A model generated the notes under the pieces. The model saw only the letters and a list, made by a program, of their open reading frames with translations. It had not been told where the DNA came from and ran no database searches. From Chloroflexota bacterium (lineage in GTDB: Bacteria; Chloroflexota; UBA11872): a DNA stretch of 64,000 nt. The translations under genes and the position numbers were made by a program. Position 1 is the first letter of the stretch, and each line of letters opens with the position of its first letter. Shown in pieces: positions 54,085-63,402 of this stretch. The stretch is from assembly GCA_963667925.1 (NCBI GenBank), contig OY764080.1, positions 310,501 through 374,500 of the forward strand, read 5' to 3'.

Positions 54085-55008
54085 ATGAGCGCCAGCGCCT
54101 GGGCCTATTCGAACGGTGAGATTGTCCCGCTGGAAGAGGCCCGCTACTGGCCCAACGACCTGGCCATCATCTACGGCGAGATCGTCTACGAGGCCACGCG
54201 CACCTTCGGCGGGAAGCCCTTTAAGCTGAAGGAACACATCGATCGGCTCTACCGCTCGCTCGACTACTGCCGCCTGGACCCGGGCCTGACGGCCGAGGAG
54301 CTATCCGAGGTCACGCTGCAGGTCGTGGAACGCAACAGCCCTGACCTGCCGGACGGCAGCGACACCTGGATCTTCCACAACATCACGCGCGGCACGCACC
54401 CGCAGTTCCCGGGCGTGGGACGCGGCGACGCCGGGCCCTCGGTGCTGGTGTGGACGCATGAGCTGGGTTTCAAGTACTGGTACACGTACTACGAGGAAGG
54501 CGCGCACTGCGTGACGCCCTCGATTCGGCAGGTCAACATCGCCACCCAGGACCCGCGCATGAAGACGCGCAGCCGCATGTTCCTGGCGCTGGCCGAGCAG
54601 GAAGTCAACGCCCTGGCGCCCGGCGCCTACACGCTGCTGCTGGACAACGAGGGACGCATCGCCGAGGGCACCGGCGCCAACTTCATGCTGGTGTCCGACG
54701 GCGCCATCCTGACCCCGCGCACCGGCACCGGCCTGGCCGGCGTGAGCCTCGCCACCGTTCGCGACCTGAGCCTGGACCTGGGCGTCGAGGTCCGTGAAGC
54801 CGACCTGACCCTCTACGACGTCTTCAACGCCGACGAGGCCTTCCTCAGCAGCACCCCCTACTGCCTGCTGCCCGTGACCCGCGTCAACGGCACCCAGGTC
54901 GGCAACGGCCACCCTGGCGAACTCTACGCCCGCCTGATTGACGCGTGGAGCGAGACGGTGGGCGTGAACATCATTGAACAGGCCCGGAGGCTGGGCGAAG
55001 CGACCTAA
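54085..55008 (+). CDS. Aminotransferase class IV (IlvE/Dat/PabC-like, PLP-dependent)
   Basis: 'YEATR', 'HIDRLYRS', 'MKTRSR', 'IAEGTGAN', 'LAGVS', 'DEAFLSST'. Confidence 0.9.
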   Translation: MSASAWAYSNGEIVPLEEARYWPNDLAIIYGEIVYEATRTFGGKPFKLKEHIDRLYRSLDYCRLDPGLTAEELSEVTLQVVERNSPDLPDGSDTWIFHNITRGTHPQFPGVGRGDAGPSVLVWTHELGFKYWYTYYEEGAHCVTPSIRQVNIATQDPRMKTRSRMFLALAEQEVNALAPGAYTLLLDNEGRIAEGTGANFMLVSDGAILTPRTGTGLAGVSLATVRDLSLDLGVEVREADLTLYDVFNADEAFLSSTPYCLLPVTRVNGTQVGNGHPGELYARLIDAWSETVGVNIIEQARRLGEAT

Positions 55009-55070
55009 CGCTCGAATGGGGAGTGTCAGACTGACCGCCAGAGTCCGCGGAGCGAAATGCAGGAGATGCG

Positions 55071-55994
55071 GTGGGTGACGGCTTGATCGGCCGGTTGGTC
55101 CGCGCTCTGCGGCTGGATCCGACGCTCTACCGCGAAGTCGCGGCACCAGGTGCGAGCACGGAGCAGGCTGCGCTTGTACTGATGCTTGGGGCGATCGGGT
55201 TCGGGTTTGCTCACTCGGCAGACAGGATTGCAGGCTGGCTGAATTTTGGATGGTTGGGGATCACGCGCGTTGACACTAATGCGTGGATCGTTGGTCAGTT
55301 TGAGAACGGCCGCATCGTGACGCACGCGCTCGGTCTCATGGCAGCTTGGCCGGTCTGGGCCGTCTGTCTGTACCTAATCGGCAAGCATATGCGGCACCCG
55401 GATCGACCGGCACCGGGCTTTGGACAAGTCGCACGTGCTATAGCGTTCGCACAGGTACCGGGACTGGCAGGCATTGTCCTACTCATACCAGCCACCATCG
55501 CCTCAGTCTTTCTGGTTCCGGACGTCTCGCTTCCACATCTACCGGGTGCAGCTAGTGAAATCATCGATCCACTCTCACTGCCTTGGCTCGGATTGCTGGT
55601 AAATGTTGGGACAGGCGTGCTTCTGGTCTGGGTCTTTATTGGGACCTTCCTGGCGCTGCGTGAAGCCGTGGGGCTAAGTCAGGGCCAGGCGTTGAGCGCA
55701 ATTGCCCTTGCAGCCGTGTCAATAACCGTACTAGCAATTGTTGCCTTGACTCTTATCAGCATTGTTGCTGCCGCCGCCGGCGTGATACCCACCGCCTTTG
55801 GGCCCGACTCACCCGGCTTTGTTCGAACTGAAATCTCCTCACTTGGTCTTGATCGAACTGACATCGCCGCGCTGGTCTTGGGGGAAGCCCCGAGTCGGGT
55901 AGCACTAGCGTTCGACTTCAATCTTGGCTGGTACTTCACTCGTGAACTCATCAGTCGACTTGACGACGTACTCGTGCTCGTGGTCGCGACGTAG
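55071..55994 (+). CDS. Yip1-like multi-pass membrane protein (array copy a)
   Basis: '[13 protein letters not shown]', 'VARAIAFAQ', 'GTFLALREAVGLS', 'FDFNLG'. Confidence 0.75.
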   Translation: MGDGLIGRLVRALRLDPTLYREVAAPGASTEQAALVLMLGAIGFGFAHSADRIAGWLNFGWLGITRVDTNAWIVGQFENGRIVTHALGLMAAWPVWAVCLYLIGKHMRHPDRPAPGFGQVARAIAFAQVPGLAGIVLLIPATIASVFLVPDVSLPHLPGAASEIIDPLSLPWLGLLVNVGTGVLLVWVFIGTFLALREAVGLSQGQALSAIALAAVSITVLAIVALTLISIVAAAAGVIPTAFGPDSPGFVRTEISSLGLDRTDIAALVLGEAPSRVALAFDFNLGWYFTRELISRLDDVLVLVVAT

Positions 55995-61553: not shown

Positions 61554-62222
61554 ATGGGTAACGGATTCATCAGCCGGTTGCTCCGTGCCCTGCGGTTGGA
61601 CGCGAGCCTCTACCGCGAGGTATCGGCCCCTGACGGCAATACGCGGCAGGCGGCGCTGGTGGTTTTACTCACGGCCGCGGCCGCCGGCACCGAGGGCTTG
61701 TGGGTGAGTGCCAGCGGTGCTGGACTCATCGCTGTTACGCACATGCTCGCTTGGCCGGTCTGGGCTGCGGGGCTCTGGCTGGTTGGCGTGCGACTTAGAA
61801 CACCATCTGGCGAGACGCCGGGACTCCAGCAAGTCGCGCGCGCAATTGCGTTCGCACAGGCGCCGGGCGTGTTCTTCGCGCTCGGCCCCATCCTCCTATG
61901 GAGTTCCGGGCCTCTCGCGGGCACGGTTCGGTCTTTGGTCTTCGTCTGGGTGCTGGTCGGGACTCTTCTCGCCGTTCGCGAGTCGTTGGGGCTGAGCAAC
62001 GGTCGAACTCTCGGCGCGTTGGTCGCTGTAAGTGCAGTCATCGCGGCGCTGTTGGGGCCCGTGATTACCTTCCTAACCTTATGGGTTCTTTTGCCTCACG
62101 TGACGCTGGGATCCATAGTCGCGCTGATCTGGTATGGGGTGTTTGATTTCAACCTCGGTCTGGGTCTCATGAACGCGGTGATGCGCCTCGTCCTGCCAGT
62201 CGCGTTCGAGGTCATCGCGTAG
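61554..62222 (+). CDS. Yip1-like multi-pass membrane protein (array copy f)
   Basis: 'RALRLDASLYREV', 'VARAIAFAQAP', '[12 protein letters not shown]', 'FDFNLGL'; leader homologous to that of copy d. Confidence 0.78.
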   Translation: MGNGFISRLLRALRLDASLYREVSAPDGNTRQAALVVLLTAAAAGTEGLWVSASGAGLIAVTHMLAWPVWAAGLWLVGVRLRTPSGETPGLQQVARAIAFAQAPGVFFALGPILLWSSGPLAGTVRSLVFVWVLVGTLLAVRESLGLSNGRTLGALVAVSAVIAALLGPVITFLTLWVLLPHVTLGSIVALIWYGVFDFNLGLGLMNAVMRLVLPVAFEVIA

Positions 62223-62334
62223 CGCGAGACGACCCGGTTCGGCTTTCGCCCATGCGGCTGAAGACTCCGCCGTTGGGCAGGCTTGGGGCGAACGGAAACA
62301 GTCCGTTCACATTGTGAAAAACGCGCTTTGAGAA

Positions 62335-63402
62335 CTATCGCGCCAACGGCAGCAGCTTGATGCAGACGGGGTTGGGGATTTGGGTTTGGTGGCCGGTGGG
62401 GTGGAGGTGGCCGGTTTGGTGGTTGATGCGGAAGGGGACGATGGTGCTGGTGTCCTGGTTGGCGGCAAGGAGCCAGGTCCCCGAGGGGTCGATGGCGAAG
62501 TTGCGGGGGGTTTGGCCCTGGGTGGATTCGTGGCCCAGGCTGGTGAGGCGGCCGGTGGCCTGGTCGATGGCGAACATGGCGATGCTGTCGTGGCCGCGGT
62601 TGGAGCCGTAGACGAACTTCCCTGACGGCGCGACGTGGATGTCGGCGCAAGTGCTTTCGCCCTCGAAGTCGGCAGGCAGGGTGCTGACGGTCTCGATTTC
62701 GCCGAAGACTCCCTGGTCGGCGACGTAGCGCAGGACGGAGATCGACGACCCCAGTTCGTTGATGAGGTAGGCGAACTGGCCGTTGGGGTGGAAGTCGAAG
62801 TGCCGAGGCCCTGCGCCGGCCGGTGTGCGCACCCAGGGGACGTGGTGGGGCGCCAGCGTGCCGTTGCCCAGGTCAATGTCGTAGACCAGCAGCTTGTCGA
62901 TGCCCAGGTCCGGGGCGAAGGCCAGGCGGTTGGTGGCATCCAGGATGATCGAGTGGGCGTGCGGTCCCAGCTGCCGCACGGGATGGATGCTGGATCCCTC
63001 GTGCTGAACGAAGCCGGTTAGCGGGGCCAGGCTTCCGTCCGCCTGGATTGGCAACATGGCCACGCTGCCGCTGCCGTAGTTGGCCAGCAGCACGTAAGAC
63101 TCAGTGGCGTCCACGCTGATGTGGCAGGGGACCTGGCCGCCCGTGAGCTGCTCGTTCAGGTAGGTCAATTCGCCGGTGGCGGGATCGATGGCGTAGGCCT
63201 TGATGACGCCATGCGATTCCTCGCCGACGGCGTAGAGGTTTCGTCCTGACGGCGAAATCTCCACCCACGACGGATTGGAAATGCCGCCGATAACGCTTAG
63301 ACGCTCCAGTTCGCCCGAGCCCGCATCGAACCGGTACGTGTAGATGCCCTCGCTGGCGCCTGTGGTGTAGGTGCCGATGAAGGCGAGGAATTGGTTAGTC
63401 AT
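62335..63402 (-). CDS. pgl: 6-phosphogluconolactonase / lactonase (7-bladed beta-propeller)
   Basis: 'FIGTYT', 'PCHISVD', 'ANYGSG', 'PHAH', 'GAGPRH', 'SNRGHDSI', 'PRNF', 'ANQD'. Confidence 0.9.
   Translation of the reverse strand: MTNQFLAFIGTYTTGASEGIYTYRFDAGSGELERLSVIGGISNPSWVEISPSGRNLYAVGEESHGVIKAYAIDPATGELTYLNEQLTGGQVPCHISVDATESYVLLANYGSGSVAMLPIQADGSLAPLTGFVQHEGSSIHPVRQLGPHAHSIILDATNRLAFAPDLGIDKLLVYDIDLGNGTLAPHHVPWVRTPAGAGPRHFDFHPNGQFAYLINELGSSISVLRYVADQGVFGEIETVSTLPADFEGESTCADIHVAPSGKFVYGSNRGHDSIAMFAIDQATGRLTSLGHESTQGQTPRNFAIDPSGTWLLAANQDTSTIVPFRINHQTGHLHPTGHQTQIPNPVCIKLLPLAR

Follow-up and report, generated by a model that had tools for sequence, protein, structure and literature searches.

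The locus and its relatives

A stretch of 64,000 nucleotides (nt) from a Chloroflexota bacterium (contig OY764080.1, positions 310,501 to 374,500), called here the window, carries a class IV aminotransferase gene (AT) and, convergent to it, a gene for a pgl-like lactonase. Between these two anchors lie three cassettes of Yip1-like genes, a nuclease gene and three displaced 3' ends ("tails") of the anchors themselves. The AT-pgl interval is a long-lived hypervariable slot of operon-like Yip1-family cassettes in an uncultured Chloroflexota clade. Its present form was probably reached by rare microhomology joins that duplicated the slot, with the tails then serving as substrates for the homologous recombination by which cassettes are exchanged, lost and renewed. 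The features of the locus, in coordinates of the window, are as follows.

54085-55008, plus strand: full-length AT gene, the left anchor (Pfam Aminotran_4, E = 1.7e-34)
55009-55070, plus strand: leader of cassette 1, with the motif GTGTCAGACTGAC at 55023-55035
55071-57565, plus strand: cassette 1, a triple of open reading frames (ORFs) with weak Yip1 matches, Y1 (55071-55994), Y2 (55994-56629) and Y3 (56669-57565)
57566-57748, no strand: spacer from Y3 to pgl sequence, inherited with cassette 1
57749-58055, minus strand: pgl tail T299, with its own stop codon (57749-57751), the terminus LLLV* and its homologous part at 57757-58055
58049-58055, no strand: joint J1w, the GTCGGCG microhomology of pgl and AT
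58049-58159, plus strand: stranded AT tail that has kept its TAA stop, made of 93 nt (58067-58159) and 18 diverged nt
58160-58222, plus strand: leader of cassette 2, with the motif at 58176-58188
58223-59924, plus strand: cassette 2, the Yip1-like ORFs Y4 (58223-59002) and Y5 (59043-59924)
59925-60109, no strand: spacer from Y5 to pgl sequence, inherited with cassette 2
60110-60182, minus strand: pgl tail T66, with its stop codon at 60110-60112 and the terminus LLPV*
60183-60189, no strand: joint J2, the fusion point of the pgl tail and the nuclease gene's 3' flank
60190-61359, minus strand: gene for a NucS_C-like PD-(D/E)xK nuclease of 389 amino acids, a candidate defence gene (Pfam, PADLOC)
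61360-61553, plus strand: divergent intergenic region of the nuclease gene and Y6 with leader 3, motif at 61507-61519 (repeat families D5 and D10)
61554-62334, plus strand: cassette 3, the Yip1-like Y6 (61554-62222) and its spacer to pgl
62335-63402, minus strand: full-length gene for a pgl-like seven-bladed beta-propeller lactonase, the right anchor, terminus LLPLAR* (Pfam Lactonase, 3.2e-122)

The lactonase of the right anchor is related to pgl and scores under the NCBIfam equivalog cut-offs; exact-protein look-ups with pgl and AT gave no match. The six Yip1-like paralogues of the window share 28-42% protein identity with one another. Three of them reach the Yip1 family (PF04893) at 21.6-25.3 bits, below the gathering cut-off of 28.6, and E values under 0.01 to PF04893 were obtained for 11 of 20 members of the cargo family (best 2.6e-9), whose homologues have precomputed Yip1 matches. 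The nuclease matches Pfam NucS_C (5.8e-10, residues 72-143) and, better, the PADLOC entry PDC-S11 (4.4e-30); of the two domains expected of NucS only NucS_C is matched, with an NCBIfam score of 54 bits against a cut-off of 216. Scans of the slot ORFs with Pfam, NCBIfam and PADLOC detected no methyltransferase partner for the nuclease, no toxin or immunity matches among the cargo and no mobility gene. The 64 kb contain the 13-nt leader motif GTGMCAGRCTGAC at exactly three places (chance expectation 0.43), each time ahead of the first gene of a cassette, and the motif is also conserved 3' of AT or of AT tails in the relatives. It has neither an Rfam match nor a stable fold (no Rfam family was found in 50-64 kb of the window) and could be a promoter, an operator or something else.

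Related loci were collected in two ways. A scan of species-representative genomes with pgl gave 19 loci (L001-L019) from Chloroflexota metagenome-assembled genomes (MAGs) with pgl 76-97% identical, several of them on complete long-read chromosomes, and a protein search with Y3 together with contig look-ups in ENA assemblies gave six more (L081-L086). AT and pgl bracket a variable slot in each locus that reaches both flanks, with 1-8 Yip genes over the 25 loci, and AT is 87-98% identical in amino acids wherever its position is reached. A preliminary reading of the window made from the letters alone (below, the sequence-only reading) had predicted that cargo numbers and alleles would vary between the same anchors in relatives, and this holds in the 25 loci. 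Several cassette types recur, namely ABC (Y1Y2Y3), DE (Y4Y5), F (Y6), G and HI, besides others, in combinations that vary by genome. Of the 19 loci of the genome scan, 12 have the nuclease gene in their slot, as do four of the six later ones (L081, L083, L084 and L086).

Orthologues in different genomes are 45-88% identical, as against the 28-42% of paralogues within the window. The Y1Y2Y3 triple was also found in L002, L004, L009, L011, L017 and L081-L086; its orthologues in the 19 loci, drawn from the genome_contigs collection, are 39-65% identical to those of the window, and close copies (68-100%) occur only in L081-L086. Orthologous Y4-Y5 pairs with 79-88% protein identity are carried by L006, L008, L010, L012 and L014, and Y6 orthologues (70-84%) by L003, L004, L007, L008, L015, L016, L018 and L019; the Y6 stretch of the window (61506-62327) is precisely missing from L081, L083 and L084. 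Nine whole slots (L001, L002, L003, L007, L011, L013, L015, L016 and L019) are free of stranded pgl or AT copies. L085 has a simple single-slot AT-Y1Y2Y3-pgl arrangement, with no tails on the covered part of the slot, its contig ending within pgl.

Stranded ends of the anchor genes

The coordinates, lengths and mismatch counts of the tails and the pgl termini given by the sequence-only reading were all reproduced. T299 (57757-58055) aligns to 62349-62647 of the resident pgl over 299 nt with 15 mismatches, its first 118 nt being identical, as found by both a repeat finder and direct comparison. T66 (60117-60182) aligns to 62348-62413 over 66 nt with 4 mismatches. The AT tail (58067-58159) aligns to 54916-55008 over 93 nt with 13 mismatches, with homology extending 5 nt beyond the TAA, and falls in repeat family D9 (116 nt at 84%). 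The reading frames of pgl in the window thus end in three types, LLPLAR*, LLLV* and LLPV*.

Between T299 and the AT tail, the 11 nt at 58056-58066 had been taken as unrelated sequence. They are in fact diverged AT sequence: 8 of the 11 positions match AT alleles of relatives, and across the joint an AT allele of the L014 type matches at 24 of 29 nt. AT homology therefore starts at 58049 and overlaps the pgl homology by GTCGGCG, and J1w is a direct fusion of pgl to AT without filler, broken 313 nt from the pgl stop and about 111-120 nt from the AT stop. At 19 of about 111 positions the AT tail departs from the resident AT, and in 14 of these 19 its state is found in the AT genes of other genomes; judged by these states, it is a different natural AT allele. 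At J2, pgl is broken about 85 nt from its stop and joined to the 3' flank of the nuclease gene. A decayed AT tail hidden in J2, between the nuclease stop and the pgl tail, was considered and rejected, the resemblance being too weak in GC-rich sequence.

A chimeric ORF of 171 amino acids (57644-58159, plus strand) runs antisense through the pgl tail and, keeping its frame, takes in the final 31 codons of the AT tail, to its TAA. A gene of 110 amino acids is annotated at this site in L081; the chimeric ORF is probably non-functional.

Termini and spacers follow the cargo

The pgl alleles are homologous up to a point about 12 nt before the stop codon, and the last 3-5 codons together with the downstream spacer match the adjacent cassette, in tails and in full genes. 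The LLPV* terminus always stands beside Y5, as part of the full gene in L006, L008, L010 and L012 and as part of a tail in the window and in L014, so that T66 has the terminus type and the downstream sequence of the full-length pgl of the former four loci. Accordingly, the spacer between Y5 and pgl is 84% identical to that of L014, where a tail follows, and 75-80% identical to those of L006, L008, L010 and L012, where the full pgl follows. Termini of the ..VAR*/..LAR* type adjoin Y6, and the homologue of the T299 spacer lies beside an apparently full-length pgl in L085 and beside a tail in L081-L083. Since termini and spacers track the cassettes in full genes and tails alike, the tails are genuinely displaced 3' ends, as the sequence-only reading had claimed; of the three termini of pgl and two of AT that the window holds, each type is linked to its own cassette.

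The joints behave differently. J1w has DE cargo on its right in the window and in L081 and other Yip genes in L082; J2 has Y5 as its left neighbour in the window and in L014 and Y3 in L083. A second joint of pgl to AT, called here J1o, has cargo of G, F, C or I type to one side; to the other lie DE, G or the nuclease gene. The junction-proximal parts of the tails are decoupled from the cargo. L083 corresponds to the window array less the stretch from T299 to T66, and in it the nuclease gene, and no other, stands between 67-nt direct repeats of the pgl end. Recombination within the shared 66-73 nt either produced this arrangement or started from it.

The 8 kb that separate the full pgl of L017 from a 351-nt pgl tail (11100-19370) are taken up by an operon with genes for an old yellow enzyme homologue, a RoxA-like cytochrome c, a P450 and a haem peroxidase of animal type; no recombinase or mobility gene was found in the insert. 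With a pgl tail beside an unrelated operon, the same anatomy of anchor duplication serves quite different cargo.

The joints are old and shared between lineages

J1w was found in the window, in L081 and in L082, with the joint and the AT tail base-identical in all three genomes (58056-58159, 100% identity), although the flanks of both other carriers are 5-9% diverged from the window. With the leader included, 167 of 167 positions (58056-58222) are identical to L082, and L081 differs at 4 leader positions. T299, which adjoins the conserved AT tail, differs by 3-9% from L081 and L082; in L082 the divergence is 7% over the initial 71 nt of Y4. L081 comes from another ENA sample, and its 544-kb contig is colinear with 50045-61505 of the window, both joints included; L082 lies on a 3.65-Mb contig and has an insert of the IS1595 family to the left of J1w. 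This insert (10895-13615, between Y3 and the pgl tail) encodes an IS1595-family transposase and a fusion of an N6/N4 methyltransferase with HNH (541 amino acids), has terminal inverted repeats and a 10-nt flanking direct repeat, GAATTGTTGC, and looks like an insertion sequence with a passenger gene.

In J1o, pgl, broken 263 nt from its stop and carrying an internal 58-nt deletion, is joined to AT 79 nt from the AT stop through CCGC microhomology. It was detected in seven genomes (L006, L008, L009, L010, L012, L084 and L086), twice in L010. J2 is present in L014, L006 and L018 (there decayed); the copies of the window, L081 and L083 have an extra deletion, of 31 nt between CGGMCC repeats. The pgl of L014 is only 79% identical in protein to that of the window, yet J2 is common to both, and the block of Y5, spacer and tail is 84% identical between them, about as the flanks are. 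J2, shared with this block at flank-like divergence, thus predates the split of the window and L014 lineages. AT tails without a pgl tail occur in L004 and L082. In L018 (13181-13292), a heavily decayed pgl tail of about 50 nt lies between the nuclease gene and AT, with copies of the usual nuclease-AT spacer (CAGGCT..) on both sides; it looks like the scar of a lost cassette.

Over all these joints the breakpoints vary, lying 79-85, 263, 313 or 362 nt from the stop in pgl and 30, 64, 79 or 111-120 nt from it in AT, and all the joints are illegitimate. With 4-7 nt of microhomology, they agree in this with the sequence-only reading. The claim of that reading that the slots were recently added to this genome from three strains does not stand, as J1w is base-identical in three lineages and J2 occurs in a species with about 79% pgl identity.

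Gene conversion within genomes and exchange between lineages

Mismatches between T299 and the resident pgl are unevenly placed, with 0 in the 118 stop-proximal positions and 15 in the 181 distal ones (Fisher p = 6e-4). The identical stretch (62349-62466 and 57757-57874) holds two codons, Pro (in IVPF) and His (in INHQ), that were seen in no other genome. Among the three J1w genomes, 0 sites in the first 118 nt separate tails from full genes, and tail and resident pgl share lineage-specific sites, 3 in L081 and 2-3 in L082. This pattern of sites indicates gene conversion, or concerted evolution, of the stop-proximal part of T299 with the resident pgl; for the Pro and His states, either the gene converted the tail or mutations of the tail were fed into the gene. 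Because conversion acts within the genome, similarity of a tail is no measure of donor relatedness. Of the proposal that the tails came from different strains, the part concerning the AT tail survives, as this is a different natural allele at 14 of 19 differences; the low divergence of the pgl tail, however, does not show origin from a close relative, at least the 118-nt stretch reflecting conversion from the resident gene. The distal 181 nt of T299 are about equidistant from all pgl alleles (12-25 mismatches; 15 to the copy of its own genome). A search for a foreign pgl allele nearest to T299 therefore pointed to no donor, the distal part being at a like distance from them all.

The comparison of the window with L081 gave a mosaic of synonymous divergence (dS). 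The gene in the upstream flank has a dS of 0.157 (the flank being 91% identical in nt), pgl 0.215 and AT 0.092 (97.4%). In cassette 1 the values are 0.012 for Y1 (99.5%), 0.040 for Y2 (98.0%) and 0.004 for Y3 (99.9%), and in cassette 2 they are 0.072 for Y4 (96.4%) and 0.091 for Y5 (95.4%); the nuclease gene is 89% identical. The low dS of Y1-Y3 relative to the flanks suggests that cassette 1 recently moved between lineages. A further border of this kind is found at cassette 3, where the spacer between Y6 and pgl is 96% identical to those of L015 and L016 and pgl itself 83%. The ratio of nonsynonymous to synonymous divergence is 0.2-0.36 in the Yip genes versus 0.06-0.12 in AT.

A model for the array and its alternatives

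Based on these observations, a model can be proposed in which two old illegitimate joins, J1w and J2, would have duplicated the slot and left the three stranded tails as scars. Each sub-slot would then be bounded by AT homology with a leader to the left and by pgl homology to the right, so that homologous recombination could swap the cargo of one sub-slot for alleles of related lineages, and exchange between two tails, or between a tail and a full gene, could delete or amplify sub-slots. Meanwhile the tails would be converted to the sequence of the resident gene, and whole patches would be carried from lineage to lineage by homologous recombination, for which we infer a route of DNA transfer between the lineages. 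Of this model, the data show the microhomology joints and their persistence across lineages, the turnover of cargo on both sides of a fixed joint, exchange between tails, conversion of tails by the resident gene and the transfer of patches between lineages. The first join may have originated by an intragenomic template switch or unequal exchange, by a one-sided import resembling homology-facilitated illegitimate recombination (HFIR), or by single crossover of a circularised slot fragment.

Several points weigh against this model. The AT tail and joint are perfectly conserved across three genomes amid neighbours that are 4-9% diverged, which the model does not predict; the AT tail may be functionally constrained, for instance as a promoter. 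J1o may have arisen as a join of its own or from a J1w-like joint that lost about 90 nt. The conversion signal in L081 and L082 amounts to 2-3 sites each. The relatives are mostly MAGs, in which binning or assembly may affect some arrangements, the key ones lying on contigs of Mb scale. Lastly, for several differences the direction, insertion or deletion, is unrooted, and a species tree is needed to orient them.

The sequence-only reading had explained the locus by HFIR after transformation: three whole AT-cargo-pgl slots from different strains would have been added recently in tandem, the tails being imported or displaced alleles. In this form the explanation is doubtful. HFIR has been described in transformable bacteria (de Vries & Wackernagel 2002, Prudhomme et al. 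2002 and Meier & Wackernagel 2003, as cited in PMC5361080 and PMC3240628) and has been proposed for analogous arrays (PMC5361080). A homologous anchor on one side plus 3-10 nt of microhomology on the other would give J1w, J2 and the L017 insertion in one step; the joints do show microhomology, the AT tail is another natural allele at 14 of its 19 differences, the ancient cargo types occur as single slots (L085, L015 and L003) and no recombinase was found. However, in the experiments as these papers summarise them, recipient DNA between anchor and joint is usually deleted, whereas here part of the anchor is duplicated, and intragenomic duplication yields the same joint. The joints are moreover old and common to several lineages, one joint is accompanied by different cargo in different genomes, so that slots are not fixed units, and the similarity of the tails partly reflects gene conversion rather than donor relatedness. 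T299 is only 5-8% diverged from the resident pgl, yet the Y1-Y3 orthologues are 39-65% identical in the 19 loci. The addition of whole slots from relatives is thus favoured by the existence of a single-slot source arrangement (L085) and opposed by the same joint with different cargo elsewhere, and intragenomic slot duplication followed by allelic replacement is as good an account of the origin of the joints as HFIR.

A more far-reaching variant of the proposed model would regard the joints of pgl tail and AT tail as selected, portable double homology arms that form, together with the leader, a self-repeating cassette platform free of integrase, possibly with breaks initiated by the nuclease. 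This is unlikely; were it true, the conservation of AT tail, joint and leader would reflect function, a symbiont population could shuffle its surface or membrane repertoire of Yip1-like proteins, and the working of the locus would resemble that of an integron, run on homologous recombination and gene conversion.

A purely intragenomic history, in which the slot was duplicated in tandem by microhomology template switching and the copies then diverged without exchange between lineages, has little probability. The back-to-back arrangement of pgl tail and AT tail is exactly the novel distal-to-proximal joint expected from a simple tandem duplication, and L010 has the same joint twice. In contrast to the copies of such a duplication, those of the window are dissimilar in cargo: as the sequence-only reading had stated, the cargo (28-42% identical in protein) is far more divergent than the tails (84-95% in nt). 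Each cargo type is also closer to orthologues of other species than to its paralogues at home, and the dS mosaic, with a cassette 1 of 99-100% identity amid 9% diverged flanks, requires exchange. Duplication followed by divergence alone is therefore excluded as the sole explanation. The same reading had taken the divergent cargo as an argument against simple tandem duplication. That argument fails once cassettes are replaced beside a fixed joint: with cargo replaced independently of the joints, divergent cargo cannot argue against duplication.

It is similarly improbable that the nuclease drives the system as a selfish restriction- or homing-type element, cutting near the 3' ends of AT or pgl and producing long target duplications with co-conversion of the flanks. 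A pgl tail or an AT 3' end is always the neighbour of its gene, which is bracketed alone by the 67-nt repeats in L083, its product matches a PADLOC defence candidate, and long target duplications are documented around restriction-modification genes without mobility genes (PMC2853133). Tails and joints are, however, also present in nuclease-free slots (L010, L012, L004 and L017), the enzyme is without a methyltransferase partner, and the association may mean no more than that the nuclease gene belongs to the cargo.

That an integrase or integron-like enzyme, encoded elsewhere, acts site-specifically on att cores located in the pgl or AT ends or in the leader motif is hardly credible. The conserved leader motif at each cassette start and the sharp end of the pgl-allele homology about 12 nt before the stop would fit such a mechanism, but the latter boundary is explained by the end of protein constraint and the breakpoints vary between junction classes. 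The spacers contain no inverted repeats or attC-like hairpins (folding z-scores -1.4 to +0.6). No integrase or transposase domain was found in the slot or in the Pfam-scanned ORFs of 38.7-46.9 and 48.1-53.1 kb (43891-44274, 47244-48131 and 52903-53991 were unscanned; the last is acetyltransferase-like, as assigned from the records of relatives), the only tRNA lies at 38479, and the sole transposase of the related slots is the IS1595 one inside L082. The locus thus differs from an integron, neither attC-like palindromes (in the spacers) nor an integrase (in the Pfam-scanned ORFs) being found, and from an integrase-borne island, with no fixed att core and no tyrosine or serine recombinase found. 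The sequence-only reading was right in placing no recombinase or att core behind the joints.

A chimeric assembly of co-occurring strains, for which the uncultured source and the absence of an exact 24-mer across J1w from the genome_contigs and metagenome_contigs collections might speak, is excluded for practical purposes, since both J1w and J2 were met again on contigs of 0.5-3.6 Mb in ENA assemblies made independently from other samples, the 7 nt shared at the joint are too short for a k-mer or overlap join, and analogous joints are found in seven other genomes; the joints are genuine.

Comparison with known systems

Insertion with long target duplication was reportedly described by Nobusato et al. 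in 2000. In later work, direct repeats of 30-420 bp, often of a gene 3' end, were found to bracket inserts without transposase or integrase (Furuta et al. 2010, NAR, PMC2853133). The repeats are 93-99% identical, are single-copy in the empty genome and can mediate amplification or loss (PMC2853133). The locus resembles these cases in that 66-299 nt of the pgl 3' end bracket the cargo, are single-copy in tail-free relatives and enclose no mobility gene. It differs in three respects. The described cases concern restriction-modification systems, whereas the cargo here consists of Yip1-like proteins and a lone nuclease without methyltransferase; the tails of both anchors are fused back to back and whole slots are repeated; and the junctions are ancient and cross-species, with cargo turning over around them.

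Arrays of displaced Rhs C-termini and orphan modules were reportedly described by Jackson et al. in 2009. For T6SS (type VI secretion system) effector-immunity arrays in Vibrio cholerae, recombination anchored in a conserved gene, with the old 3' end kept downstream, has been documented and HFIR proposed (Kirchberger et al. 2017, PMC5361080), homologous replacement being commoner than displacement (PMC5361080). As in these arrays, displaced 3' ends lie downstream in a heterogeneous, integrase-free array. In the Rhs and T6SS arrays, however, the conserved gene is the toxin and the displaced tip a functional toxin domain with its immunity gene, whereas here there are two convergent anchors of housekeeping type, 3-5 terminal lactonase codons differ and no toxin or immunity function is evident.

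In replacement-type flexible genomic islands, or minimal mobile elements, variable cassettes are exchanged by homologous recombination in conserved flanks. Ancient divergent alleles between conserved anchors, mosaic borders and a lack of mobility genes are common to these islands and to the present locus. Unlike the classical replacement islands, which have a single slot, the locus has been made additive by illegitimate joins, with anchor copies as borders inside the array. It further differs from the target-duplication cases and the displacement arrays in that conversion maintains the resemblance of its tails to the resident gene. With an anatomy like theirs and lacking the cargo that defines either of them, it belongs to no single one of these families.

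The locus is thus a well-resolved natural example of a replacement-type variable locus that, without integrase, transposase or tRNA, has become an additive gene array, where copies of the anchor ends made by rare microhomology joins serve as internal homology arms for swapping, loss and conversion. It also illustrates that, where gene conversion is active, the similarity of a fragment to the full-length gene can neither date an insertion nor reveal its source. The pgl residues specific to the window and common to the tail suggest that tails may feed variation back into a gene of housekeeping type. The fast turnover of the Yip1-like family, together with a candidate defence nuclease, makes the locus a target for work on the interaction of phage and host in these (probable) symbionts.

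Host and neighbouring genes

The host clade is probably sponge-associated, as suggested by isolate names, co-hits of Poribacteria and two ankyrin-repeat genes. Eukaryote-like ankyrin-repeat proteins are typical of sponge symbionts, and the two in the window, of 543 and 371 amino acids, are encoded upstream of the locus at 48086-49717 and 49995-51110, both on the minus strand. Downstream of pgl, a gene at 63539-63952 (minus strand) encodes a DUF4276 protein that matches the PADLOC candidate HEC-01B (1e-16), the window ending before any partner ATPase. At the position of this gene, L006, L009, L011, L017 and L081-L084 carry instead a second cluster of Yip1-like genes.

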